DNA of 64,000 nucleotides from Leucoraja ocellata (taxonomy: Eukaryota): the NCBI GenBank assembly GCA_036785375.1, contig JAWMAR010000084.1, positions 3,162,001 to 3,226,000 of the forward strand. The letters run 5' to 3'. Within the stretch, counting starts at the first letter, position 1, and each line of letters starts with the position of its first letter. Below, one piece after another: positions 1 through 48,136 of this stretch. The translations under genes and the position numbers were made by a program. The notes under the pieces are model-generated. The model did no database searches, was not told the DNA's origin, and saw only the letters and a program-made list of their open reading frames with translations.

Positions 1-276
1 ATTTGGTGTACATATAGTGGCTGGTGTACATATGGTGTACATATAGCTGCTAAATTTGTATAAGATAATTATAAGCAGTTGAATAAGGGGTGGGAATTAA
101 TAAGCTCTGGCTTCTTCCTGCCCCTTTTCGGACACATACAATTTCATTTATTTATAGATATTGTTTATGACTCTTTATAAATATTCTTGTTTTGTTTTTT
201 GTATGCTGTTTCACACTTGCTTTTTATTCTTTTATTCTGTTCGAAATAAATAATAAAATAAAATAAAACAAAATAA

Positions 277-1925
277 ATGAATAAGTATATTAGCCAAGTA
301 TCCACATACAAGGAATTTGCCTTGGTGCTCCGCCCACAAGTAACAACTTGACATACAGTGACAGTTAAGAATGATACATAAAACATTAAACATTAATAAT
401 AAAACATTATTGATTAAACATGTGAATTAAATAAAATACCAGAGCAAAAGGAGGCTACAGATTTTTGGTTATTGAGTAGAGCTACTACTCGTGGAAGAAA
501 GCTGTTTTTATATCTGGCTGTGGCAACTTTGACAGTCCATAGTCGCCTTCCAGAGGGAAGTGATTCCAAGAGTTTGTGTCCAGGGTGAGATGGGTCAGGG
601 ATGATCTTACCCACTCGCTTCCTGGCCCTTGCAGTGTAAATTTGTCAATGGTGGGAAGGTTGCAGCCAATAAACTTCTCAGCTGATCGGAGGATTCGCTG
701 CAGCCTCAGGGCTATGTGCTTGGTGGCTGAACCAAACCAGACCATGATGGAGAAGGTGAAGATGGTCTCTACGATGGCCGTATAGAATTGGACCATCATT
801 GCCTGTGGTAAATTGTGCTTCCTCAACTGCCGCAGGAAGTACATCCTCTGTTGTGTCTTTTTGACTGTGGAGTCGTTGGTAGCCCCCCCACTTAAGGTCC
901 TTGGAGATGATGGTTCCCAGGAACTTAAAATACCCCACAGGTGTGACTGTGGTGTTGTTGATATTGAGTGGGGTGAGGGGAGGGGGAGCTCTCGTAAAGT
1001 CTACAATCAATTCCACTGTCTCAAGAGCATTGAGCTCCAGGTTGCCAGCTGTGACACTTCCTGTCTGTTGGCAGATTCCTCCTCATCCTGGATCAGTCCA
1101 ATCAGGATTGTGTCGTCCGCAAACTTGAGAAGCTTGACAGATGAGTCGGTGGAGGTGCAGTCATTGGTGTAGAGAGAGAGAAGAGGAGAGGGGAGAGTAT
1201 GCAGCCTTGCGGTGCTCCTATGCTGAGGGTTTGCGGGTCTGAGATGTGCTTTCCCAGACTCACATGCTGCTTCCTGTCTGTCAGGAAGCTGGTGGTCCAC
1301 TGACAGATGGTTCAGGCACAGTCAACTCGGAAAGTTTGGAGTGAAGTAGCTCTGGCACAATGGTGTTGAATCCAGAGCTAAAATTAACAAACAAAATCCT
1401 TGCATAGGTCCCCTGGAAGTCTAGGTGCTGGAGGATAAACTGCAGGCCCAGGTTGACTGCACCATCCACAGATCTATTGGCCCGATATGCAGGCTGCAGA
1501 GGGTCCAGCAGGGGGTTTGTGATATTTTTCAGCTTGGCCAACACAAGCCTTTCAAGGGTCTTCATGACAACAGAGGTCAGTGCGGCAGGCCTGTAGTCAT
1601 TAAGACTAGCATTCCTTGCCTTTCTGGGTATAGGGACAATAGTGGAGACTTTGAAGTAGGCAGGGACATTACAGGTTTGCAGGGACTGGTTAAAAATGTC
1701 TGTGTAGACCGGTGCCAGTTGTTCGGCACAGAGCTTGAGAGCAGAGGGGAAACATTGTCCGGTCCTGGAGATTTCCGGCTTTTCTGTCTTCTGAAAAGCC
1801 TCACCACCACCTCTATTTTTGTTGTTGATGATGGAGAAGTGATGTTGTGCAGCACGGAGGGTGTGGGAAATTAGGTGTGAAGTGGTGATTGGAGAGGGGT
1901 GGTCTGGTGTTCTGCTCCGCATTCA
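277..1925 (-). mobile_element. Rex-Babar (Rex1-like) non-LTR retrotransposon, 5'-truncated and frameshifted
   Basis: Minus-strand RT pieces: [21 protein letters not shown]...YRANRSVD...[15 protein letters not shown] (1281-1922), LYTNDC...KFADDT (1007-1300), FKFLGTIISKDLKW, and C-terminal YFLRQLRKHNLPQAMMVQFYTAIVE (485-844). 3' UTR runs to about 277. Confidence 0.85.
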
Positions 1926-4318: not shown

Positions 4319-7300
4319 TAAAATGGCAACAGATCTGCTATAGTTGTCAAGTTGATGTATCTCTTTCCTTCAGTTAGAACTGGTGTTCATTATTCAGAGA
4401 TTTCTGTTCTATTCTCTCAAGTTTGATTGTGAAGGATTCAGATTTGTGTTTATACACCTGTGTTCTAAAGTGCTTGTGAGAATTTGCCCTTCACAGCAGT
4501 TTTAGACTGCAGCTGAATGCATCAATTAGCTGGCAGTATTCAAAATACTTGTTCATTGTGCAGGTGTTCATGCAGAGGTAGACTTCAATCTTTTTCATTA
4601 CCCTCCGGCATTATTAAATACAAGGCATCTTTAGCATTCTGTCTTCCCCAGTGACCTGATAAGTATATTCATATTTATGATGTGACTATTGAGAAAATTG
4701 CAGGAAGAAAAAAAGCTTGCAGTGCAGAAGAGATGGTGATATTAGAGATGTTACAAGCATTGTGTTAATTGACTTTTTATGCATTTTTTTCCTGCTTTTG
4801 CTAAGTTTGGACAGAGAGGAACTAATCGGTGGAAGGCGGTTACAGGAGATGCAAAAGACCAAACTTTATATCTGGTTGAATATATAAATCTTTATGCATT
4901 TCACTATCTGAAAGATTTTCGCAAAGGCACAGATGATAAACCAAAGAGAGAGATATTAGGAAGAGTGACCAAACATTTGATCAAAATAATTAATTTCAAG
5001 GGGGGGGGGGGGGGGGGAAAGATACAAAAGCAAAAGATTCTAGAGCAAGGGGCTTACCTGAGAGAAAGTGTGGAACTAGGATGAAAGTATTGTTTCAGGA
5101 AAAAATATAGTTACAGGTGCATACATTAAAAAGGTTATGTGTTATTTTAAGCACATGTTTGAGACCTTTTGGTGTTAGGTTGCAATGAGAGTCAGTGCAG
5201 TCTGTTAACAATGGCAATGGTATTTGAACAATAGAAAGCAAAGAGCTTAAAGATTTTAAACATCCTTCTGGTTATGGCAGATGGAAGACAGTCTGGCTTT
5301 GGAGTCATTGGTACAGTTGGTGGCGAATGTCACAGGCAGAAATAAACCGTTATTATAACGGAAAAGAGCAATAGGCCTGGGAGCACAGTGGGATGTAAAT
5401 TGTCCAGTTCATTCTGCCAGGGGAGAACACAGTCATTATCAATGGCATGTTTTATTGATGGAGGCTAAATATGGAGCGGCATAAATGCACCCAAAACTTA
5501 AAATATATTCTGTGTGAATTGTTGGCAACTTTATTAATTTGATTCTGTTACAGTTAGTGGAGCCAGATTTAGTAGTATGCAAAAGTGCTACAGTGATGCA
5601 TGTTCATAGAGAATAGGTTTGGAAGAACAGTGTTATTTTGGTCTTTATTACACAGGAAAGTTGTCACATAAAGAAACATTGATAAGGTTGCATGGGGGAA
5701 AAGGTTAGAATATATTTAGAGCATAATGTGCATTTTTCTTCACAGTAGCTAAAAATATATACTTGCCTTTGTGGCTGTGCAGTGTTGATTCACTAGATTG
5801 ACTCCTGGAGTAAGGAACCTTTGTAATAAACTGATGATTCACATCGTGTAGTTTAGAATAATGAATCACTCACAATGAAACATCATGATTCCAGGTGGGA
5901 TTGACAGGGTAGATGAAGAGAGGGACTGTGTCCTTCACTGGATGGTTTGAACAAGAGAACATAATTTCAGGATGTGGGGCAGCCATACATTGAGACGTCT
6001 TTTACGTGGTGAATTGCAAAGTTTGGGGAATTTCTACCTCCAACAATTCAATCACAATCAACATACGAGGAATTTCATTTGCCAAGTCGGTCAAGCGTAT
6101 TTAAGTGTATCAAATGTATATAAGGTTACGATGGGTAAACATTTAGACATAGAGGAATCTCTGGATTGGGGATCAGTTGAGCAAATGACTGAAACTCAGG
6201 TCAACCAATATCTGAATGAATGCGTGAGCAAGATTAAAGTGTCATGTGGCCTACAGCAGTTTCTATTTCATCAGTTCTGGTGACCCAAAATAAATCTGGG
6301 CTCCCAATTTATTTCTTCCCTAATGTATCATTTGAGCATTCTAAAAGTTGTTTGGAAATTACGAGCAGAGATCAGTTGTTTTTGGCATGTGGATCTGATC
6401 CTGACACAAAGGTCAATGATTGGGACATCTGTTATAGGAGTAAGTAGGAAAAAAAACACAATTTACAACTGAATAACTTTTGGTGCCTTAATTCAGGAGA
6501 GAGTACAAAAGAGACACTATGAAAATGGGGATTGGGAGATAAGACATATGAATAGAACAATTATCTGAGTTAATTATAGAACAAAGATTTAAGAGATTTA
6601 ACTGAGGTGTTCAAAACTATGAAAGGGTTTGATGATGTAGTCAGGAAAAATTCTTCCATTAGTTTGTGATTTAGCAACTAGGGCATATCGATTTAAGATA
6701 ACCAAAAACATTAAAATAAAGGTTAAAAGGATTTCCTGATATGTTAAGCCCTATCTCCATAGTCATGGCAAAATAATCCATTACATATTTTAGAACGTAA
6801 GTGGACATTTTTAATATATTGGAACGAATAATTAAGTTCTGGTGAAACATTCATTGACGAGAAGCATCTGCCATCTGACCTGCTAAATATTACCAGCAAT
6901 TTTTGTTTTATTCAGATTTTCAGCATCTGTAATATTTTATTTTTTAAATTGGTAATCTGACTGCCACTGAGCCAAAAAGAAAATGTATTCCAATTTGTTT
7001 GCATGGAATAAAATTTCTCAATGAATATACGGCCTGAGGTAGGAATGAACGGGGCAGCACCACCACCATTGTATTGCAGAAAGGTGTTTGCTTGTGGATT
7101 ACCCATCGGTGTTTATATGAAGCTATTTTTAAGCAATTAGTATTACAAGTAGAGGTCATACGTTTAGCCTGAGCGGTAAGAGGTTTAAGGGAACCTGTGA
7201 GAGAACATTTTCATTGACAGAATGGGTGGAATGAGTTGTGGAGGCAGCTGCGTTATAACACATAGGAAGTATCTCGACAAATAATTGAATTGCTGAGGTA

Positions 7301-7617
7301 TGGAGAGTTATGAACCAAGTGGGCAGCACAGCTGTTCGTTCTACTGCCCCACAGTGCCAGAGATCAAAGTTGAATCCTGACCTTGGTTGCCATTTGAGTG
7401 GAGTTTGTACGTTCTCCCTGTGACAGCATGGGTTTCCTCCAGGCGCGCTAGTTTCCTGACATATGAATGAATGAATAAGTTTATTGGCCAAGTATTCACA
7501 ATCAAGGAATTTGCCTTGGTGCTCTGCCCGCAAGTGACAACGACATACAGTGACAGTTAGGAATGACACATAAAACATTAAACATTAATAATAAAACATT
7601 ATTGATTAAACATGTGA

Positions 7618-7680
7618 ATTTTACTTCGGAGTCACGTGAGTGACTACGTGAAGAACCCACCCAGCGCGCAGGCGCGGCAT
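7618..7680 (+). repeat. DIRS1 left terminus (left extension plus ITR)
   Basis: 7618-7654 is the exact reverse complement of 12072-12108. 7645-7680 is the exact reverse complement of 12299-12334. Contains the small hairpin AGTCAC-GTGA-GTGACT. Confidence 0.95.
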
Positions 7681-7793
7681 TACGTCAGTAGTGCAACAGC
7701 GGCAGCAGCTGGAGCCAGGCTCTCCAGCTGCAGCATAAAGACGAGACCTCAGGTAAGTGCCTTTTTTGTTACAGAGTCGCTCTAGAGAGAATA

Positions 7794-9005
7794 ATGGCCT
7801 CTCGCAAGCGACCAGCCAGGAGGACTGCCTGCCCAACTCCACCCGAGGACGGGTCCATAGCGGGACGGCAGCCTCTCGCAGCGGAGGAGCCTTTTCAACG
7901 CTCCCGCTCACCCGACACCGAGCCACCCCCAGTGCTGCAGATTTCAACGCCCCGCACAGGGAGGAAGGCGACACATAAAACCGACCGGCCGGTGTCCTCC
8001 GATGAATCGGAGGAACGGGAACACTCTCCCCCACCGAAAAGGGGAGACGCTCGGATCAGCTGCATGAGGCAGCTCCTCGAGCGCATGATAAACGAGGAGA
8101 TGCGGCATCTCCCAGGAGGACGGGCTTTGGCCTCCTCCTCTCCACACCCTTCTGTACCCTCTATGTTCGAGGGCAGTAAGGGAGGCCAGGACTGGGCTGG
8201 CCTATCCCAAGGGCAGGCGGAGGATACCGTCAGCATGCCGGGCGTGCCGGAAGAAGAGCTACTGGGTGTAGTGGGCCGATATGCGGCGCCCCCAACAACT
8301 GGGATGGTGTTGCCACCCAGAATGGCGGCCACTATAAACAGGCTGTCCAACAACCCGCTGCAGGACAAGGCTGTCCAGCAGGCCCTTGACAATTACATCG
8401 CGCCAGAAAATTGCGAGGCGCTGAGGGTCAAGACGGTCAATGGGCAGATCTGGAACCAGCTGGGGCAGCAAATCAGGGCTCAGGAAGTCAAAATGCAGCG
8501 AGTCCTGAAGCTCCACTCAGCAGCCGTCACCGCCTTTGCTCGGTCCGTTGGGGATGAAGACCTGACCATACCCCAGCAGGATGCCCTCGCACTGATGTGC
8601 AGCACCACGTATGAGCTAAATAACCTACGGCGGGACAACATCAGGCCTGCCCTCAACCCAACATATGCCGGCCTCTGTAAAGCTCCAGCGCCCGAACGAC
8701 AGGCGCTGCTATTTGGTGCGGATCTGGCCAAAAGGCTGAAGGAGTTGGAAGAGGCGGCAAAACCAGTAGGCCTCATGAGGGCAGGGCCAGGACCGAGCAG
8801 GGTGAAGACACCCAGTTGGCCGCACGCCCCGGCAGCCACCAGCAGATACCGAGCTGGTGAAAGCCTGGTGACCGCCTCCCACTACCCCCAGAGCTCTTTT
8901 TTAGAGCGGGGCCCAGGGCGGAGCCGTGGGAAGATGCGCCGCCCCACCGCAGCACCAACACGGACAACCTTGGGCCAGACCCACCGAAAACGACCCCACA
9001 AGTGA
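7794..9005 (+). CDS. DIRS1 ORF1, gag-like protein (403 aa)
   Basis: Intact ORF in the ORF1 position. PENCEALRVKTVNGQIW...ELNNLRRDNIRPALNPTYAGLC...LLFGADL followed by a basic low-complexity tail, as expected for DIRS1 ORF1. Confidence 0.85.
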   Translation: MASRKRPARRTACPTPPEDGSIAGRQPLAAEEPFQRSRSPDTEPPPVLQISTPRTGRKATHKTDRPVSSDESEEREHSPPPKRGDARISCMRQLLERMINEEMRHLPGGRALASSSPHPSVPSMFEGSKGGQDWAGLSQGQAEDTVSMPGVPEEELLGVVGRYAAPPTTGMVLPPRMAATINRLSNNPLQDKAVQQALDNYIAPENCEALRVKTVNGQIWNQLGQQIRAQEVKMQRVLKLHSAAVTAFARSVGDEDLTIPQQDALALMCSTTYELNNLRRDNIRPALNPTYAGLCKAPAPERQALLFGADLAKRLKELEEAAKPVGLMRAGPGPSRVKTPSWPHAPAATSRYRAGESLVTASHYPQSSFLERGPGRSRGKMRRPTAAPTRTTLGQTHRKRPHK

Positions 9006-9007
9006 AC

Positions 9008-10942
9008 ATGGAGGTAGGTGGGTCTGGTTCCTGTCAACATACACAGACAAAGGGTGTAGTATTAACAGGGGGACGTTTGAGGTTCTTCAAGCATGTTTGG
9101 TGCTCCCTTACTAACAATAAGTTTATACTCAACAGTATTAGTGGATACAAAATTGAGTTCAAACCAGGCGTAGAACCGCCAGTTCAGCACATGCCCCAAA
9201 GGGTGTTCCTTCCCTCGGCAGTTGAGAAGGTAGAAGGACAAGCTGAACTTGATCGGCTCGTGGCTAAAGGCATCATAGAAATGACCACACACGAGCCGCA
9301 AGAATTTGTATCAAATATTTTTCTCAAAACCAAAAAAGATGGTGGATGTCGCATTATTATTGATCTGACGTCACTTAATCAGTCTGTTGAGTATCAACAT
9401 TTCAAAATGGAGACATTTGTCACTGCCAGACAACTGATCTCCAAGGGATACTACATGGCAAGCATAGATATCAAAGATGCTTACTATTTGGTACCCATTC
9501 ATAAAGATTACTTTAAATATCTGAAATTTATCTGGAGGGGCCAGCTATGGCAGTACCGAGCTTTGCCCAATGGTTTAACGACAGCTCCCAGACTATTTAC
9601 GAAAATTCTTAAAGTGGCCATGAAGAAATTGAGAGAACTAAAACATTTAGTTGTGGCCTATCTGGACGATGTTCTCATATTAGGAAGAACACGGGAACAA
9701 GCTGTCGCAGGAGTGTTAGCCACTAAACAACTCCTTGAAACTTTGGGTTTTATCCTTCACCCAGATAAATCAATATTGGAGCCTACTACTAACATGGATT
9801 ACCTAGGCTTCACTATTGACACGATTCACATGACTGTCACTCTGCCCAGAGACAAAACAGTTTCACTTATTGAAGCTTGTAGCTATTTAATTGCTACACC
9901 ACAACCTAGAATACGGCATGTAGCCAGAGTTATTGGCTCTATAGTAGCAGCATTTCCGGCTGCCCAACATGGGCCCTTGCATTATCAAAATCTACAAAGA
10001 GCAAGGACTCATGCATTACGCCTTCATAGGGGGCATTATGATCGCAAAATGGATTTACCCGCTGAAGCCAAATCAGAACTTCAGTGGTGGGTTGACAATA
10101 TTTGGCACAGTCACAGTCCTATCGCCGTAACCAATCCTAACATAACCATTGCAACGGATGCCAGTGCTTTAGGCTGGGGAGCTACTAACTCCATAGACAG
10201 CACAGGTGGCAGATGGACTAACTCAGAGGCATCGCTACTACAATCACTGGGCATTAACTTTTTGGAAATGCTCGCCGCCTTTTATGGGCTAAAAGCATAT
10301 GCATCTGATATGCGGCACGTGCATGTTAGAATTATGATCGACAACACTACGGCAGTATCTTATATCCAGCACATGGGTGGCATTAAATCAGTATCATGCG
10401 ACAAATTAACTGCTATAATCTGGCAATGGTGTGTCGAGAGACATATTTGGCTATCAGCTGCCTATTTACCAGGCAAGCTAAATTTAGTGGCGGACACCAG
10501 GTCACGAAAATTCAACGACAACATCGAATGGATGTTGGACCCAAAATTATTTGCTAAAATTGTCAAGCAATATGGTACGCCAGATATAGATTTGTTTGCG
10601 TCTAGGTTAAATCACCAACTACCCATGTATGTGGCTTGGGAACCAGACCCAGAGGCAGCAGCGGTAGATGCCTTCACGCTGGATTGGGGAAATTTCTTTT
10701 TCTATGCTTTCCCTCCCTTCTGCCTCATCAGTCGGGTACTCCAGAAAATTCAGGCAGACTCAGCCTCTGGCATTCTGGTCGTGCCCGACTGGCCTACCCA
10801 ACCATGGTTCCCAATGTTCCACGACATGGTGGTAGAGACACCAATGGTCCTTCAACACCACCCCCAATTATTGACTCACCCGGTAACTGGCATTAGCCAT
10901 CCATGCCACCAAAAATTGAAACTCCTGGTTTCCAGATTTTGA
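9008..10942 (+). CDS. DIRS1 ORF2: reverse transcriptase, RNase H and Dam-like methyltransferase domain
   Basis: RT: IDIKDAY, LPNGL, YLDD (9659-9670), YLG. RNase H: TDASALGWG, INFLEM, IDNTTAV, ADTRSR. MT: DLFAS (10589-10603), YAFPPF (10703-10720), VVPDWPTQPWF. First ATG at 9008, 2 nt after the gag stop; the ORF track opens at GTG 9002. Confidence 0.95.
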   Translation: MEVGGSGSCQHTQTKGVVLTGGRLRFFKHVWCSLTNNKFILNSISGYKIEFKPGVEPPVQHMPQRVFLPSAVEKVEGQAELDRLVAKGIIEMTTHEPQEFVSNIFLKTKKDGGCRIIIDLTSLNQSVEYQHFKMETFVTARQLISKGYYMASIDIKDAYYLVPIHKDYFKYLKFIWRGQLWQYRALPNGLTTAPRLFTKILKVAMKKLRELKHLVVAYLDDVLILGRTREQAVAGVLATKQLLETLGFILHPDKSILEPTTNMDYLGFTIDTIHMTVTLPRDKTVSLIEACSYLIATPQPRIRHVARVIGSIVAAFPAAQHGPLHYQNLQRARTHALRLHRGHYDRKMDLPAEAKSELQWWVDNIWHSHSPIAVTNPNITIATDASALGWGATNSIDSTGGRWTNSEASLLQSLGINFLEMLAAFYGLKAYASDMRHVHVRIMIDNTTAVSYIQHMGGIKSVSCDKLTAIIWQWCVERHIWLSAAYLPGKLNLVADTRSRKFNDNIEWMLDPKLFAKIVKQYGTPDIDLFASRLNHQLPMYVAWEPDPEAAAVDAFTLDWGNFFFYAFPPFCLISRVLQKIQADSASGILVVPDWPTQPWFPMFHDMVVETPMVLQHHPQLLTHPVTGISHPCHQKLKLLVSRF

Positions 10943-11913
10943 ACAGGCCTTACCGGGGATTGGGGTTATCAGACAGAACAATCACCACCATGTCGGCATC
11001 CCTGCGAGTTTCCACCAAGAAACAGTACCTGACCTTCATCAGGAAATGGGAACAGTACTGTCTGGACGCAGGGACATCCTACAAGACGGCTTCGATCTCG
11101 GATGTGCTGGAGTTCCTGGCCCACCTGCACCATGATCTCAAGATGAGCTACAGTGCCATCAATACGGCTCGGAGCGCACTGTCCGCATACCTCATGCCGA
11201 TAGAACAGCATAGTGTGGGATCCCACCCTCTGGTCATCAGACTCCTTAAGGGGATCTTTAATACCAAACCCCCTACACCTAGATACACTCACATGTGGGA
11301 TGTGAGTGTAGTTCTGACACACCTTCGAGGTTGGCCTCCGGTGGGATCCCTGAGCCTGGAACAGTCCACTTATAAGACCCTCATGCTCATGGCGCTTGTC
11401 TCAGCTCAAAGGGTTCAGTCGCTCCATCAGCTAAATCTGAACTACATGGTGACCACCCCAGATACCATTACTTTCACCATGCCGGGGTTGGTAAAACAAA
11501 GTAGACCAGGTACATCAAACTCCCCGTTGATCTTCCGGGCTTACCCTCCAGAACCTAGGCTGTGTGTGGTGACCCACCTTCATCATTATCTAGACACAAC
11601 CCAAACGCTTAGAGGGAGAGAGAAAGCCTTATGGGTTAGCCACAGAAAGCCTTTTGGACGGGTTACCAGCCAAACATTATCCAGATGGTTGAAACAGGTC
11701 CTCAGCATGGCAGGGATTAACACAAATGTTTTTAAATCCCATTCAACCAGGGCAGCGTCCACCTCAGCGGCGGATAGGATGCAGGTTCCCCTAGACCACA
11801 TCCTCAGAGCAGCGGGATGGTCAAGGGAATCGACATTCCAACGATTTTACAGGAAACCGCTGATGGAACAGGACGTCTTTGCGGATACCATTTTAGAAAC
11901 CGCAAAGTTATGA
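10903..11913 (+). CDS. DIRS1 ORF3: tyrosine recombinase (the real start may be ATG 10990)
   Basis: Core-binding region (STKKQY...YSAINTARSALS) and catalytic set R (AQRVQSL), K (VKQSRP), HxxR (HSTRAAS), AGW and Y (FQRFYRK). No stops. Confidence 0.93.
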   Translation: MPPKIETPGFQILNRPYRGLGLSDRTITTMSASLRVSTKKQYLTFIRKWEQYCLDAGTSYKTASISDVLEFLAHLHHDLKMSYSAINTARSALSAYLMPIEQHSVGSHPLVIRLLKGIFNTKPPTPRYTHMWDVSVVLTHLRGWPPVGSLSLEQSTYKTLMLMALVSAQRVQSLHQLNLNYMVTTPDTITFTMPGLVKQSRPGTSNSPLIFRAYPPEPRLCVVTHLHHYLDTTQTLRGREKALWVSHRKPFGRVTSQTLSRWLKQVLSMAGINTNVFKSHSTRAASTSAADRMQVPLDHILRAAGWSRESTFQRFYRKPLMEQDVFADTILETAKL

Positions 11914-12071
11914 TTTAAAGCCCATGGGAGCTATTTTTTGTTATAGTTAATAAACATTTCTTTTATAACTAAACAAACTTGTTGGTCTTTAGCTACCACT
12001 TCCTCCCTCGATGATCTTTCGGCAGTGAGTGATATAACTGTTACACGGTTTGAAATCACAGACCTTTGAAG

Positions 12072-12184
12072 TCTTCACGTAGTCACTCACGTGACTCCGA
12101 AGTAAAATAGTAAGATTAAATGAGTACTTACCAGTACGAAGTTTGATCTGTATTTTATGAGGAGTTACGATGAGGGATTACGTG
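12072..12184 (+). repeat. DIRS1 internal complementary region (ICR), a reverse-complement copy of the circle junction
   Basis: 12072-12108 pairs with the left end (37/37). 12106-12184 pairs with the right end 12329-12407 (78/79). The two halves share AAT at 12106-12108. Confidence 0.95.
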
Positions 12185-12298
12185 CCCTCCGCTCCCACCC
12201 TCATTATATAGATCAAATTCGGACTAATGTCTCGTTGGTCTTTACTATCTTTACTTCAACTAGTGTCTATCTGTGATTCCACACCGCTGCTTGGAAGT

Positions 12299-12407
12299 AT
12301 GCCGCGCCTGCGCGCTGGGTGGGTTCTTCACGTAATCCCTCATCGTAACTCCTCATAAAATACAGATCAAACTTCGTACTGGTAAGTACTCGTTTAATCT
12401 TACTATT
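12299..12407 (+). repeat. DIRS1 right terminus (ITR plus right extension)
   Basis: Complementary to the left ITR and to the ICR. Ends TTTAATCTTACTATT. Confidence 0.95.
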
Positions 12408-12811
12408 AAATAAAATACCAGAACAAAAGGAGGCTACAGATTTTTGGTTATTGAGTAGAGCTACTACGCATGGAAAAAAAAGCTGTTTTAATGTCTGGCT
12501 GTGGCAGCTTTGACAGTCCGGATCGCCTTCCAGAGGGAAGTGATTCAAAGAGATTGTGGCCAGGGTGAAAGGTGTCAGAGATGATTTTCCTTGCTCGCTT
12601 CCTGGCCCTTGCAGTTCGTTAATGGAGGGAAGGTTGCAACCTTCTCAGCTGATCGGACGATTTGCTGCAGCCTCCAGATGTCGTGCTTGGTGGCTGAGCC
12701 AAACCAGACCACAATGGAGAAGGTGAGGACAGACTCTATGATGGCCGTGTAGAATTGGAACATCATTGCTTGTGGCAGATTGTGCTTCCTCAGCTGCTGC
12801 ACGAAGTACAA

Positions 12812-13655
12812 CAGTCAAGTCAAGAGAGTTTTATTGTCATGTGTCCCATATAGAAACAATGAAATTCTTGCTTGCTGTAAACAGATAAAGTGCAATAGGC
12901 TGTTATTGTTCAGAGTTTGTTTGATGGTGAGTTTTACAGCCTGATGGCTGTGGGGAAGTAGCTGTTACTGAACCTGTTTTTTCCAGATTTCAAGCTCCTG
13001 TACCTTCTTCCCGATGGCAACGGAGGGATGAGTGTGTGGCCAGGATGGTGTGGGTCTTTGATGATGTTGGCAGTCTTTTTGAGGCAGCGACTGCTCCTTC
13101 AATCCCTTCGATGGTGAGGAGGCCAGAGCCGATGATGGACTGGGCAGTGGTCACAACTTTCTGCAATCTTTTCCGCTCCCGGACGTTCAAGTTACCGAAG
13201 GAAGCCATGATGCAACCAGTCAGTATGCTCTCTACTGTGCACCTGTAGAAGTTCGAGAGGGTTCTCCTTGACATACCGACTCTCCGTAATCTTCTCGGGA
13301 AGTAGAGGCGCTGAATGCATCAGTGTGCTGGGACCAGGAAAGATCTTCGGAAATATGCACGCCTAGGACTTTGAAGTTCTTGACCCTTTCCACCATCGTC
13401 TCGTTGATATAAACTGGATTGTGGGTCCCTATCCTACCCCTTCCAAAGTCCACAATCAGTTCTTTGGTTTTGCTGGTGTTGAGAGCCAGGTTCTTGTCCT
13501 TGCACCATTTGGTCAATCGGTCGATCTCACTTCTATACTCTGACTCATCACCATCAGTGATTCGTCCCACAATAGTGGTGTCATCAGCGAACTTGATGAT
13601 GGAGTTTGCACTATGCCTGGCTATGCAGTCATGAGTATAGAGTGAGTACAGCAGC
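12812..13655 (-). mobile_element. Second Rex1-like LINE fragment nested in the first
   Basis: (CAAGT)n tail. IKFADDTTIVGRITDGDESEYRSEI...LNTSKTKELIVDF and TLSNFYRCTVESILTGCI (ORFs 13232-13570 and 12990-13274). Confidence 0.85.
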
Positions 13656-14254
13656 GAACTGTGCCTTTTTGACTGTGTAGTTGATGGTAGCCCCCCATTT
13701 AAGGTCCTTGGAGATGATGGTTCCCAGGGACTTAAAAGACTCTGTAGATGTGACTGTGGTGTTGTTAATGCTGAGTGGGGTGAGGGGAGGGGGAGCTCTC
13801 CAAATGATTTGTGGGTTAATTGGCCTCTTTAAAATTTAATCTAATGTGTAGGGTGGGTGAGAAAGTGGGATAACATAGACACATTTGAATGGGTGATCGA
13901 TGGTCGGTGTGGACTGAAGGGCCTGTTTCCATTCTGTATCTCTGAACTCTAAATTAAGAGTACTATCTGGGATTAATAATGGTGGGCAAGGATGAAGTGG
14001 GACAAATGACTTGTTTCTATGCCTCCAGGAATCTATGAATGGAATAATTGCAAAAAATAGTTTAAATTCTGAATTAATCACTAAATCACTTGCCTGCTCA
14101 AAAAAACTTAGGGCCTATAAATTCAGAATACATGATGACAAATCTCTTGAGATCTTTTCTCTGCTGCACAATTGTATAGATTGGGATCTGTTCATTTTAA
14201 TGAAAGACCTTCCTTTTGCATAAACATAGTCTATCATTGCCATGTGCACAAAAG

Positions 14255-28622: not shown

Positions 28623-29451
28623 TAGTTACAGTAAGTGAAAATCTAGCAGGCAAGCAGGATGCTTTCTCCAACCACCCCCATTTGAAATTCACTATCTTCC
28701 ACCGTATCTACCCAGTGCTTGGTACTTACTTCCAGCAGCCACTGATTGTCCTCCAGAATGCACCGAGCCGCAGCCTGATCCATGCCGGTCACCTGGGCGA
28801 ATTCGGCACAGAGACTCTCACGGCAGTGGCGCAATGCTTCTACGCCTCCGCCTGCCCGGGACTCTTGCACTGAGGCTGCTCCATGGCCGGAGCTGCAGTG
28901 AGCGACTCGCCAGCCTGGCAAACACTCGCCAGCCCCACTCCCCGTCCGCATCTGTCCCCGCCGCTGCTTCTGCTTCCAACACCCGCTCCCCATGCAGTTG
29001 ATATGAGTTTTGAAATTTTCGTTGATCACAGAATTTCTCACAACAGAGCGAAATAAATTTGTGATCAGCGTGAGAATTTTGTGAAATGCGTGATTCTCAT
29101 GGTCAATGCATGGGAGTTCCCTCTCCCTCTCCCTCCCCCTCCCCCTCCCCCTCCCCCTCCCCCTCCCCCTCCCCCTCCCCCTCCCCCTCCCCCTCCCCCT
29201 TCTCTCTCTTCCCTCTTTCTCCCAGTCCCGGCTCCCCGCATCTGTTCCCGCCGCTGGTTCTGCTCCCATCCCTGCCGCAGCTCCGGCTCTCCAACACCCG
29301 TGGACCATGCAGTTTATCCGAGTTTTGAAATTTTCGTTGAATTCAAAATTTCTCACCACTGAGCGTGAGAAATGTCTGATCAGCGTGAGGGCGTGAGAGT
29401 TTGCTTGAGGGCGTGAGTCTCGCGCTGAAAGCGTGAGAGTTGGCAGCCCTG
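28623..29451 (-). mobile_element. One-ended hAT-like non-autonomous element with host-gene cargo
   Basis: End CAGGGCTGCCAACTCTCACGC at 29451, multiple CTCACGC subterminal repeats, an internally duplicated unit of about 120 bp (about 28975-29095 and 29290-29390) and a (CCCCCT)n tract. The other TIR is not found; the sequence abuts a CR1 fragment at about 28622. Confidence 0.6.
28730..28884 (-). pseudogene. TDP2: TDP2-like exon 1 fragment (UBA-like domain), disabled
   Basis: GCCATGG start context. RESLCAEFAQVTGMDQAAARCILEDNQWLLE is followed immediately by GTAAGT (28729-28724). It resembles TDP2 RRLLCVEFASVASCDAAVAQCFLAENDWEME (recalled). The ATG frame has a TAG at codon 15, and ATG to donor is 155 nt (frameshift). 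Confidence 0.7.
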
Positions 29452-29890: not shown

Positions 29891-31370
29891 CAGGGCCGGC
29901 GTTAAGCCGATTTGACCGATTGCTCCCAATTGGGCCCCGCGCCTAAGCGGGGCCCCGCACTAATGTTCAGTATTTCGTACGGAAATACGAATTCTCTTTG
30001 TTAAATAAAGATTTTTTTTAATTCGCCATCCGGATTTTTTTTAAACGAACATGTATAACAACCGCTGCACGGCCATCATACACAAACGATTTGTTAACTA
30101 GTGCTGTTAGCACTTCTTAACGGTAAGTAGTTAACACCTTGTTATGCAATGTCATGAATCCGCATCTATCCGCATTCCTCAGTAAATGTTATAGTGTTTT
30201 GAACAAGTAGTAATGACACTGTGTTCCTTTGAATAAAATTCACGCGGCGTCATTAATACTTGTTTAAAACACAATTACATTTACTGAGGAATGTAGATCG
30301 ATGACACATTGAGAATTTCATTTAACTCACCATCATGAGTGAGGGCCCCGGACCGCGAGAAGGGGCTTCTTCCTGGTGTGCAGGTTAGTCATTCACCTAC
30401 CGACCCACGTTGTCTCTCTGTCTTTTGCTCACTGCCTCCCTCCCGCTTTCTCTTGCACTCTCTCTCCCGCTCCCTATATTGTCTCTCTCTAGCTCTCCCA
30501 CTCCCTCTCTATCACCCTCTCCCCTCAGCATTCCCGGAATCATTGATGTTTAGCAGTAGACAAAAATGCTGGAGAAACTCAGCTGGTGAGGCATTCGCCT
30601 GGCCCGCTGAGTTCCTCCAGCACTCTGTGTTTTTTGTTTGGCTCTGAAGTTGAAGGTGGCTCAGCGGGATGGGCAGCGGCTCTGGGGAGAGGGTTGTGTT
30701 TCTGGTCGAGACCCTTCTTCAGACAATCACAAGTACTCTCACCGACGCGAGTTCAGTTCGGTCTGAAGAAGGGTCTTCTCTCCAGAGTCGCTGCGCTGCC
30801 TGTCTGCTGAGTTACTCCAGCTTTATGTCTATCTTCAATTTCAGAGAATTACAATTTCTCACGGGGGGGCTTATAACGTCTCTAAACCCCTCTGGGACCC
30901 TCTGAACACCTCTAAACCCCCTCTAGCCCCCCCCCCCCCTATTTCCCTCTATTCCCCTCTAAACAATTGTAAACACACCTGAACCCATCTGAAGCCCTCT
31001 AAACATCTCTAAGCCGTTTAAACCCCCTAAGGCCAGCCATGCNNNNNNNNNNNNNNNNNNNNNNNNNNNNNNNNNNNNNNNNNNNNNNNNNNNNNNNNNN
31101 NNNNNNNNNNNNNNNNNNNNNNNNNNNNNNNNNNNNNNNNNNNNNNNNNNNNNNNNNNNNNNNNNNNNNNNNNNNNGCTCATTTTATTAGATGTGTGACA
31201 CTTTCATATAGTTTTTCAAAATTTTAGTATATCAAGCATTTAATGTTTTTTTTGGTTAAAGACGAGCATACTACACGAAATATAAACATACATAAATTTT
31301 TACTTTTCTAGAGTAGGGGCCCCGCCATCAGTTTTCTAATTGGGCCCCGCAATTCCTAGCACCGGCCCTG
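29891..31370. mobile_element. Non-autonomous hAT transposon spanning an assembly gap
   Basis: TIRs CAGGGCCGG and CCGGCCCTG. 8-bp TSD TATGAGAG/CATGAGAG. GGGCCCC subterminal motifs at both ends. Carries Penelope-end pieces (about 30555-30837) and TCTAAACCCC-like repeats. Confidence 0.85.
31043..31176. other. Assembly gap
   Basis: Run of N. Confidence 1.
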
Positions 31371-31968: not shown

Positions 31969-32863
31969 ACTAATCTTAATACATTCATCCTCCTCACCCC
32001 ACACATACATTCTCATCAACTGCACCACAGATCCTACCACTAAACTACATTTGTTGCCAATTAACCCACCAACATACGCCCAGAGCACCAGGAGTAATCC
32101 GCATTGTCACTGTGAGAGTGTATATACGCCACATAGACAGCACAGGAAGTCAAGATGGTATTGAGGTGCCCAGAGCTGTGAGGCTACTAGCTGGCCCACT
32201 GTGCCATCCCTGATAAGATGTTGATGACCTTCAAATGGAAACTAAAGGAGGCAGCACCAGATAACAAATAAAAGAAAGGAAAAAAATGAAATTCTTCATT
32301 GCTTCAAATTTGTGTTGTAGTTTTAAGCCAACACACATTTCAGACATCCCTACTATTTTAATAGTAAGATTAAATGAGAACTTACCAGTTTGAAGTTTTA
32401 TCTTTATTTTATGAGGAGATACGTTGAGGGACTACGTGAAGAAGGCCCGTCCAGGCACACGTGCGTCAATCTTCAAAGCAGCGGTGTGAAATCACAGATG
32501 ATATGTACCGAAGGATAATAGTAAGCTACGTGATACAAACTTAACTACCTCCTCTGGCCTTAACTTTATCTTTATTAGGGTGGGTGCGGAGGGCACGTAG
32601 TCCCTCAACGTAACTCCTCATAAAATAAACATTAAACTTCAAACTGGTAAGTTCTCATTTAATCTTACTATTTTACTTCGGAGTCACGTGAGTGACTACG
32701 TAAAGATTTTAAAGCTTCTGTGATTTCAGGCCGTAGATTCAATTCCGGCGTATCACTGCATTTTGATTGACTCTATGAGCGAAAGACAGTCAATAACATG
32801 CAACCATAACATTTGTTTAATCCGTTAATGGTTTATTTTATGATAAACATTATGTGTCCCATT

Positions 32864-33869
32864 TTAATCACTGGGAACATTTAATACTGAATCCAAAACC
32901 GTACCACCAAATACACCAGGGTCTGCAATCTCATTGTGGTAATACTTGTAAAACATCCTTTCATTTGCCCATCCTGTGGTTGCGAGGATATGGCCTATTG
33001 GAACATCCAAATCCTTGGCCGATGATGTTGCCGTCGCCCTGGTGGAATGAGATTTAAATTTGTCAGTATCAATTCCTGAATCCAATAGCACCTTCTTCAG
33101 CCATCTTGAAATTGTTTGTGTTGACACTTTTTTGTGTGTTTTTTTATGGCTGATAAGTAATGCGTATTCTACACCTCTAAGGTGCTTGGTGGTCTCAATG
33201 TAGTGTTTCAAATATGTAACCACACATAGTCTTTGGTCTGTAGGATATGCTGAAAAAAGCAATTTACACCCCGAGACTCCTGGTCTGCTCTGTTTTAGCA
33301 AGTCATAGACATATAATGTAATTTCCTCTGTTGTCATTCCCATTCTGTCTACCCGTAATTTGTGTAATGTTTGTACTCTTTGGGCTGAGACTAAAGCCAT
33401 TAACATGATTACTTTCATAGTGATTTTGTCTAAAGACAAATTTGAGATTGGGACTCCAATCCCTAAGTAGCGTGAGTACATCCCTCACATTCCAGATTTC
33501 CGTATATCTCGGTCTGGGAGGTTTAGCATTAAAGATGCCCTTCATGTATTTACAAATCAAGGGGTGTGATCCTCGAACCTGTTGTTCAGATGCTCTCGAT
33601 AAATATGCAGAGAGGGCACTGGCACTCCTTGCAGTGTTGATTGCACTATAACTTAAATTAGCATCAAAATGTCATGTTGACAAGAATTCTACAACATCTG
33701 AAGTGTTTGCAGTGTGGTAAGAAATGTTTTGTGTTGCACAAAACTGCTCCCATTTCTTAATGTAAGAAATGTACTGCTTCTGGGTACTATCCCTCCAGGA
33801 TCCTGCAATTACATCCATAGTGCGATCTGATAGTCTTCTTCCGACATATGGCCTTTTTAGAATCTGCAA
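32864..33869 (-). pseudogene. DIRS1 tyrosine recombinase, frameshifted
   Basis: STQKQYISYIKKWEQFC, KGIFNAKPPRPRY, LMALVSAQRVQTLH, LKQSRPG, TISRWLKKVL, FKSHSTRA and GWANERMFYKYY spread over several frames. Confidence 0.9.
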
Positions 33870-34300
33870 ATCAACAAATCAATACGATCATGTAAAGGAT
33901 GAAAATCACCAGTTACAGGGTGCATGAGTAGGTTTTCTTGTCTTGAGATATGCATTATAGGTTCTGTCATCATTTTTAACTCTAATGGATACCATGGTTG
34001 TATGGGCCAATCTGGGAACACCAACAATCTTGAAGCATTATCTTGTTTGATCTTCTGTAGAAATCTACATAAGACAAAAGGGAGGAAATGCATATAAAAA
34101 CATTCCACCCCAATTTAACGAGAATGCATCTACCCATGTTGCACCTGGGTCTGGTTCCCACGAAACATATTGAGGTAACTGGTGGTTCAATCTGGATGCA
34201 AACAAGTCAATTTCTGGTTTTCCAAATTTTTGCACAATGTTATGGAAAATGTCACGATTTAACATCCATTCTGTATTGTCATTAAATTTCCGTGACCTAG
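33857..34300 (-). pseudogene. DIRS1 pol C-terminal remnant (Dam-like MT domain)
   Basis: TRSRKFNDNTEWML...IDLFASRLNHQL...YAFPPFCL, then a frameshift to FPDWPIQPWYP...HPVTG...LICRF*. Confidence 0.9.
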
Positions 34301-34527
34301 TATATTTCCGTGCCTTTATAAATCATTTTACCCATGAGGAGTTCCAATTGAGAAACTCTGTCTGACATAACTTCTGGCTCAGACTCGTCCGAGTCTACTG
34401 GCCTGTTAGTTTTCTTTTTGGCCTTGCTCCCTGTGGGCGTTTCAACGGGGCTTTTTTCTCCCGTTTTAGAAGTTGCTGGTTTTTCTACCGTCGACTTTTT
34501 AGTCGGGCGGCCGCTACTCTCAGCCAT
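34301..34527 (-). pseudogene. DIRS1 gag N-terminal remnant
   Basis: KAKKKTNRPVDSDESE aligns with KATHKTDRPVSSDESE of the intact copy. Truncated at the deletion junction. Confidence 0.75.
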
Positions 34528-35135
34528 TTTTGTCTTCTTGAGTGCTTACTGTGGTGCGCTTTCCCTTATTTCTCCCACCTTTCTCCATATAGTAAGACTT
34601 GCCTGTGTTCTCTGCACGCAGTCTCCACGGAGACAAGCAGCCTGAAAGTGAAAGTAAAAAGTACCGCTTGGAGGGCTTTGCACCTCCTACCGTGGTCGCA
34701 GCGCAATGCGTCTGATGATATGACGCACGTGCGCCTGGACGGGCCTTCTTCACGTAGTCACTCACGTGACTCCGAAGTAAAATCAAGGTTCAGGATTGTA
34801 CTGTTTATACAAAATTGATATTAAAAGCCTGGCTGAAAAAAATTAAGATATTGTATTCAGAATTACTGTCTAGGACTAAATCAATGCATCAGTAATAGCC
34901 TAAAAGGAACATAGTCAATGTGATTCAATGTAAATAATTAATTATTATATATTGTTGCAAATCAGGCCCTATATTTGAATATATGTTGTTAATACCGTCT
35001 TTTGTTTTAATTTAATTCAGATTCTGGAACTGCTGTGAAATTCAGCAGCTTAAACTATTTACAAATGATTGCCATTCTCATTGTGTAATCAGGCACAAAT
35101 AAATAAGATTATGTTAATTTGTTTTCCTTCTTCAG

Positions 35136-35291
35136 GTGCAATTTTTGAGGAGACTGCCAGAAAGGATGACAAAATGTTTCGATTAGCCGTGGCCGAAATG
35201 AACATGAATGAAGAAATATTACAAAATGAAAAGATAACATTCTCGGTCAGATTTATTGATTCCAACAATCCATTCCAGGCTGTTCAAGAAG
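35136..35291 (+). CDS. GRID2-like: Internal coding exon (exon 2, amino-terminal domain) of a delta-type ionotropic glutamate receptor, GRID1/GRID2 family, closer to GRID2
   Basis: Acceptor TTTTCCTTCTTCAG and donor G|GTAAGA. 156 bp, phase 1-1. Encodes (G)[51 protein letters not shown](A). Length and motif match GRID exon 2 as I recall it; orthology is not settled. Confidence 0.93.
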
Positions 35292-47999: not shown

Positions 48000-48136
48000 N
48001 NNNNNNNNNNNNNNNNNNNNNNNNNNNNNNNNNNNNNNNNNNNNNNNNNNNNNNNNNNNNNNNNNNNNNNNNNNNNNNNNNNNNNNNNNNNNNNNNNNNN
48101 NNNNNNNNNNNNNNNNNNNNNNNNNNNNNNNNNNNN
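48000..48136. other. Assembly gap inside an unclassified repeat (about 47340-48525)
   Basis: Run of N. The flanks share a repeated block CACGATAG.GC.ACAA....GGCCCACCTTAC (about 47458-47490 and 48156-48188). Confidence 0.9.

Follow-up and report, generated by a model that had tools for sequence, protein, structure and literature searches.

Among the DIRS retrotransposons, DIRS-1 of Dictyostelium is the only one that has been mobilised, and the integration step of the group has never been shown biochemically (PMC7192593). The DIRS-1 transcript lacks the outer termini, its internal complementary region (ICR) is essential, and its proteins act in trans. The complementary DNA (cDNA) of DIRS-1 is single-stranded and mostly linear, and no circle junction could be amplified by inverted polymerase chain reaction (PCR) (PMC7192593). 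In vertebrates, DIRS and Ngaro elements together account for 2.1% of the genome in zebrafish (PMC9341512), and DIRS-like families of Xenopus show recent amplification with support from expressed sequence tags (PMC9210276). Here we describe a DIRS1-like retrotransposon of the skate Leucoraja ocellata, located at positions 7618–12407 (plus strand, 4790 bp) of a 64,000-nucleotide stretch of contig JAWMAR010000084.1, hereinafter designated the window.

Similar to DIRS-1, the skate element encodes Gag, a protein with reverse transcriptase (RT) and RNase H domains and a putative methyltransferase-like domain, and a tyrosine recombinase (YR); it has non-identical inverted termini, an ICR complementary to both ends, and a length of about 4.8 kb. 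Unlike the skate element, DIRS-1 has inverted terminal repeats (ITRs) of about 300 bp and a long overlap of its open reading frames (ORFs). Moreover, mobility, the need for the ICR and the state of the cDNA were shown by experiment for DIRS-1 (PMC7192593), whereas the skate element is known from its sequence. We read the locus, with considerable confidence, as an intact copy of a multicopy DIRS1-like family that entered the tail of an older long interspersed nuclear element (LINE) probably through a YR crossover at ATT and probably in intron 1 of a GRID2-like gene; its divergence since then is likely about 0.1–0.35%.

Structure of the element and its integration site

The element has ATT at either end, in keeping with the shared NTT trinucleotide of DIRS1-like ends, and carries three frames on the plus strand, none with an internal stop. 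Specifically, a gag-like ORF of 403 aa spans 7794–9005 (ATG at 7794), a pol frame of 644 aa is open from 8861 to 10942 (ATG at 9008), and a YR frame of 338 aa is open from 10897 to 11913. The open frames overlap by 145 nt (gag/pol) and 46 nt (pol/YR), while gag and pol as defined by their ATGs do not overlap; the near absence of ORF overlap noted in the preliminary description thus holds for the latter and not for the former.

The left ITR (7618–7680) consists of a divergent part (7618–7644) and a conserved core (7645–7680), and its first 37 nt are mirrored in the ICR. Repeat comparison places the right ITR at 12299–12361, followed by a right extension of 46 nt (12362–12407). The cores 7645–7680 and 12299–12334 are identical at 36/36 positions, as had been described; these 36 bp are, however, only the conserved part of a 63-bp ITR, over which 7618–7680 and 12299–12361 match at 57/64. 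The ICR (12072–12184, minus strand, 113 nt) matches the left end at 37/37 and the right end at 78/79, and its two halves overlap by 3 nt, AAT at 12106–12108. Its single mismatch, 12121 versus 12392, had been taken for a C-to-T change at a CpG. CpG decay in the ICR is a plausible cause, but in a second DIRS family of the window (see below) the equivalent place has T in both ICR and terminus, and therefore the direction of the change is not fixed. Such repeats greatly exceed what chance would produce (79 nt at 99%; fold z = −21). Split direct repeats, a trait of Ngaro- and PAT-like elements, were not found, there being no long direct repeats in 7000–13000 and the terminal repeats being inverted; Rfam gave no match across 7400–12600 at E 0.5. 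The interval 7618–12407 is thus a complete, unbroken DIRS1-like copy, as the preliminary description had it, and belongs to a known superfamily.

The pol product matches Pfam RVT_1 (E 3e-19), and its best sequence match in PDB is the Ty3 RT (E 2e-29), in line with the kinship of its RT/RNase H to Ty3/gypsy. Its predicted structure (mean predicted local distance difference test score, 89) gives fold matches to RT/RNase H structures. Across 54 aligned pol sequences (that of the window and 53 of 120 listed homologues), RT residue D154 and YLDD (D220/D221), the RNase H residues D384, E420, D445 and D496, and the methyltransferase motifs DLFA and FPPF are invariant or nearly so. Similarly, the YR product, which in DIRS elements takes the place of a DDE integrase or endonuclease, matches Pfam Phage_integrase (PF00589; E 1e-6) with an N-terminal SAM-like domain, and its profile matches Cre (E 5e-4) as well as XerA. 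R159, K187, H269-x-x-R272, W295 and Y305 of YR are invariant in 45/45 aligned sequences (the window's and 44 of 120 listed); their codons lie on the plus strand at 11410 (R), 11494 (K), 11740 (H), 11749 (R), 11818 (W) and 11848 (Y). The catalytic motifs of RT, RNase H and YR are thus intact, as first reported. The C-terminal pol domain is called methyltransferase-like on account of its motifs, of Dam or PCIF1_WW Pfam marks on 22/120 pol homologues, and of the literature. Two details of these assignments speak against them: the methyltransferase-like domain itself gives only a weak direct match (PCIF1_WW, E 0.29) and none to PDB sequences, and Cre Y324 aligns one residue ahead of the invariant tyrosine of YR, so that we infer the nucleophile rather than read it off. 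For gag, there is no Pfam match; it is homologous to the first ORF in 4/24 related loci and has a LAP2alpha lead, present on 25% of the members of one cluster. Its capsid role is putative.

The sequence around the element indicates how it probably integrated. It interrupts a host repeat on the minus strand, the tail of a non-LTR (long terminal repeat) retrotransposon, whose left part (7466–7617) is 91.6% identical to window positions 272–425 and whose right part (12408–12810) is 84% identical to 429–843. An uninterrupted paralogue of this repeat at 272–843 has one ATT, at 426–428, precisely at the insertion point, and the filled site has ATT on each end of the element and no other duplication. 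One ATT in the empty site and ATT at both ends of the filled site is what crossover of a junction ATT with a genomic ATT predicts, and integration at a 3-nt core is thereby supported. An identical empty joint is seen in two RNA runs (X23, 90 reads; X24, 108 reads) and in two further runs (X7, 1 contig; X8, 7 contigs). These joints were rejected as proof of insertion polymorphism, both flanks being high-copy repeat.

Frames for a LINE-type RT and ALKBH8_N adjoin the paralogue. Decayed non-LTR retrotransposons with RT and ALKBH8_N-like ends extend over 272–1922 and 12408–13828 on the minus strand, and it is their tail that served as the DIRS target. On the right side, both insertion sites of the window continue as ATT-AAA(T)A (12405–12420 and 32345–32362); a target preference beyond the trinucleotide is possible, from n = 2 sites.

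The host gene is represented by an exon at 35136–35291, on the same strand as the element, with AG/GT ends and coding for residues 29–80 of the protein. Its translation has nine matches: 92–98% identity to 8 chondrichthyan glutamate-receptor proteins, 7 of them named delta-2-like, and 63% to a bichir delta-1-like protein. The exon corresponds to exon 2 of a GRID2-like gene, and the element likely lies in intron 1, in sense orientation, 22.7 kb upstream of it. The GRID intron of the preliminary description is thereby borne out as to exon 2; its intronic part is indirect, as no further GRID2-like exon, exon 1 included, was found within the window. There are runs of N at 31043–31176 (134 bases) and 48000–48136 (137 bases); the first lies between the element and the GRID exon, and therefore collinearity across it rests on the assembly.

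Family, age and genomic surroundings

The element belongs to a large family. At least half of the sampled words of the element occur in 20 of the 24 listed runs, with a best share of 0.76; none of the listed holder runs is recorded as RNA, which says nothing for or against expression. In X8, 50 contigs run out of the element at its left end, and the flanks they enter are unlike (agreement 0.38); a single 89-nt contig reaches a depth of 4527, compared with about 32 in unique flank. From these contigs and depths, the family likely numbers around a hundred copies at the least, although contig depth, when summed, was not accepted as a measure of copy number. The 8 listed X7 contigs differ from the window at 40/4177 letters. 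In the Logan assemblies, one full-length pol (P0001) is 98% identical to the window's, with 11 differences, and seven YR variants have 4–8 differences each. Against P0001 and P0130 taken together, there are 14 differences (a called start residue excluded), and not one falls in the conserved columns, which are 379 of 968 (P 0.0009). By this measure the family is under purifying selection, and therefore the differences arose mostly in selected, transposing lineages.

Neutral decay of the focal copy itself would accordingly be small, bounded at about 0.35%. In simulated neutral decay (300 runs per level, with an assumed indel ratio of 0.1 and a six-fold CpG rate), the share of runs in which every frame survives is 61% at 0.1% divergence, 26% at 0.3%, 10% at 0.5% and 1.3% at 1%. 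Divergence since insertion is probably about 0.1–0.35%, and the copy is likely young in sequence terms. At the mutation rate of another species, the epaulette shark (7e-10 per base per generation; PMC10587355), this corresponds to 1.4–5 million generations. The preliminary description spoke of a very recent insertion, which is not supported as stated: the divergence is low, but may have accumulated over more than a million generations. It also counts against our reading that the runs compared, X8 included, depart from the window by some 1% in unique flank too, so that private changes are inseparable from differences between species or individuals.

A stronger version of this reading, in which the focal copy is a very recent, still polymorphic and active source element, strikes us as doubtful. 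It would account for every frame being open, for the single mismatch in 152 paired repeat positions, for the lack of change at conserved residues and for the presence of family RNA. However, the window's base is found in no X8 contig at 5 of 24 element positions listed, 2 of the 5 being of the CpG-decay type, and the ICR mismatch is itself a change. The best word share among the 20 holder runs, given above, also speaks against it, and the empty-site joints derive from high-copy repeat and hence do not indicate polymorphism. As for the RNA, X23 and X24 are raw single-cell RNA, of which about 1 and 3 in 100 reads were examined; coverage of the element is thin, comes from both strands and includes the variants of other copies. 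Neither a transcript specific to this locus nor an insertion polymorphism was found. They are evidence at the level of the family and not for the activity of the focal copy that had been suggested, and intronic read-through accounts for them as well as transcription of the element does. Nevertheless, judged from its frames and repeats, the focal copy could still be competent.

There is little to recommend the idea that the intact frames are an assembly product, with several copies merged or polished into one. The element is a high-copy repeat nested in another repeat, three apparently private bases cluster at 9868–9901, and no listed contig spans it, all of which such an artefact would explain. 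It would not explain the exact ATT junctions within a collinear host repeat, and bases unlike the family majority are present, which merging would tend to erase; in addition, intact proteins of 98–99% identity exist independently, so intact copies exist regardless of the focal locus. Finally, that host selection kept the frames open, with the element domesticated as, for example, an exon or regulator of the GRID2-like gene, can practically be dismissed: although the element lies in sense orientation, its splice signals and AATAAA could act on a host transcript and a DIRS1 gag has been co-opted elsewhere (PMC4495291), it retains complete termini and ICR, has many near-identical copies and low divergence, and shares its interval with a second, decayed DIRS element.

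This second, divergent DIRS family is represented at 32360–34783 on the minus strand by a copy that is internally deleted (most of gag and pol), frameshifted, and bounded by ATT at both ends. It has 50–70% amino-acid identity to the focal element, its left terminus is identical at 37/37, and its ICR has mismatches at 1/37 and 3/79. The shared left terminus hints that the two skate families could cross-mobilise.

Three single-contig cluster members (P0272, P0317 and P0305) have neighbouring genes in one frame, gag and pol in two of them and pol and YR in one, and an xFL motif stands near the join in both gag–pol members; all three may be indel copies or errors. Elsewhere in the window, a Ty3/gypsy-type LTR retrotransposon occupies 16.8–21.0 kb (minus strand); its protease, RT, RNase H and integrase are spread over several broken frames. 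A TDP2-like first exon at 28646–28979 (minus strand) encodes a UBA domain (human TDP2 UBA, E 2e-5) and has a GTAAGT donor. It was rejected as a rival host gene: it has two frameshifts when compared with P0325, the single close relative, and no additional exons turned up in a motif scan. It is likely a dead duplicated fragment.

Predicted expression and replication

The arrangement of the frames raises the question of how Pol and YR are made. We tentatively propose, while holding it somewhat less probable than its negation, that in a subgroup of DIRS1 elements with short ITRs and non-overlapping ORFs one RNA serves three proteins: a −1 slip of the retroviral kind would yield Gag-Pol, and splicing out pol would place YR behind an ATG 2–3 bases past the gag stop. 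For the slip, the gag/pol overlap contains a candidate slippery heptamer, T TTT TTA (8897–8903, plus strand), in gag phase, with the −1 frame opening 12 codons earlier. An in-phase heptamer occurs in 3.8% of 5000 shuffles of the overlap. A distant relative (L001) also has one, 5 codons past the opening of the pol frame (5.6% of shuffles), and the first 40 codons of that frame contain no ATG. Consistent with such a site, FF stands upstream in the pol frame in 3/10 homologues with a long enough N-terminus (of 119), compared with 0.27 expected and 0/2000 shuffles.

For the splice, a predicted donor lies behind the gag stop and ATG 9008 (9011–9019, plus strand; last exon base 9013, phase 0), and a predicted acceptor lies at the end of pol (10925–10938, plus strand), with its first exon base, 10936, in the YR frame. 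Of 15 loci examined among the 24, which represent about four families, 12 have a donor-like AG/GT in the 270 nt before the start of RT, and [EQK]V is found in 7/10 homologues compared with 3.8 expected (P 0.033). Upstream of the gag ATG, there is a further candidate donor of consensus type (7750–7758, plus strand; last exon base 7752), which has a GC variant at the matching place in the second skate family and was not seen in L001 or L004. An AATAAA between the YR stop and the ICR (11949–11954, plus strand), also present in the second skate family and replaced by ATTAAA in L001, is a candidate poly(A) place; RNAs that ended there would be mRNAs without an ICR, and not copyable.

Several results go against the proposal. 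There is no stable RNA structure behind the slippery site 8897–8903 (z −0.16). An acceptor in phase 0 at the place of 10936 is found only in the focal and the second skate family; in 3/4 other loci a CAG stands 8 nt downstream of that place and in phase 2, and in 1/4 there is none. The acceptor CAG may also be a mere by-product of conserved codons. The phase-2 acceptor of L001 fits a gag-frame ATG just behind the gag stop and not the pol frame, and therefore counts against a general, slip-made Gag-YR fusion. In the window, the ATG past gag belongs to the pol frame and goes with a phase-0 splice; in L001, it belongs to the gag frame and goes with a phase-2 splice. Both would read into YR, which favours re-initiation over, or in addition to, a slip-made fusion. 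For these two families, the frames suggest that re-initiation after gag gives YR. No junction removing pol, or lying inside it, is among the RNA joints listed (15 of 94), a result that was not weighed as evidence. A frameshift proposal for the YR of Ngaro is quoted in the literature, and the excerpts consulted hold nothing relevant on a spliced YR ORF in DIRS retrotransposons.

Taken with what is known of DIRS-1, the following cycle may apply to the skate element. By analogy with Dictyostelium, its transcript would lack the outer termini. Gag would be translated first; Pol would likely arise through the −1 slip at 8897–8903 or by initiation at ATG 9008, and a spliced RNA lacking pol would likely supply YR. 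RT and RNase H would then produce single-stranded cDNA, the ends of which would be rebuilt on ITR and ICR; complementarity of the ICR to the ends is present in the focal element, and its necessity was shown in DIRS-1. The joined ends would offer one ATT, and recombination by YR with a genomic ATT would leave ATT at both ends and no other duplication. In this scheme the double-stranded circular substrate and the YR reaction are a model. The preliminary description had treated replication through circular DNA as established, which the mostly linear cDNA of DIRS-1 does not support, and had offered a lack of circles as a refutation; the circle-junction PCR is negative even for the mobilised DIRS-1, and therefore missing circles would not refute activity (PMC7192593).

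Comparison with known DIRS1-like elements

Of the DIRS1 features examined, all are present in the skate element save the methyltransferase-like domain, for which direct searches gave weak or no matches. The compact layout with short ITRs and without ORF overlap was first considered unusual. It has in fact been published for the mollusc elements LgDIRS1, LgDIRS3, AcaDIRS1 and AcaDIRS2, which share with the skate element the ATT...ATT ends, the AAT junction and the lack of a long ORF overlap (PMC3266345). Their dimensions are close as well: the conserved ITR is 31–36 bp (36 in the skate element), the right extension 48–49 nt (46), the two parts of the ICR 39–45 and 86–88 nt (37 and 79), and the size 4.7–5.8 kb (4.79). 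LgDIRS1, for example, is 4680 bp long with ATT ends, a conserved ITR of 31, an extension of 48 and no long overlap. In contrast, the 7 vertebrate elements in the same table have conserved ITRs of 102–148 bp and sizes of 5.3–6.2 kb. Long ORF overlaps are absent in half of the 28 DIRS1-like elements tabulated (PMC3266345). The skate element differs from the mollusc set in its vertebrate host, and the likeness described here is one of layout. The skate family thus has an invertebrate-type layout in a cartilaginous fish. Its named relatives are gene models of skate, echinoderm, scallop and coral. The layout may go back either to old retention or to horizontal transfer, between which these data do not distinguish.

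The closest named relatives in a skate are LOC129695449 and LOC129708389 of Leucoraja erinacea (P0131 and P0150), related to the pol and YR of the focal element and annotated as uncharacterized proteins. One gene model shares 75% identity with the pol of the focal element and 69% with its YR, the other 50% with its YR; both are other families or decayed copies. No literature on skate DIRS elements was found in a search that did not extend to Repbase, Dfam or the Goodwin/Poulter papers, so that absence from print is not established.

Among vertebrates, Xenopus DIRS-like families such as DIRS-37_XT resemble the skate element in having all ORFs, ITRs and an ICR, and have been called potentially active (PMC9210276). 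The Xenopus elements described in PMC3266345 are unlike it in having long ITRs, TTT-type ends and long overlaps. As intact vertebrate copies are thus already in print, the focal copy alone does not open up the question of DIRS integration; being intact and compact, from a vertebrate, and with an empty site that can be read, it is, even so, usable material for it. Of greater interest are the occurrence of this invertebrate-type layout in a chondrichthyan and the slip and splice predicted above, which would explain how YR is made without the long ORF overlap. If both the slip and splice and the large, young, intact family are real, expression of a vertebrate YR integrase would be directly testable in the skate lineage.

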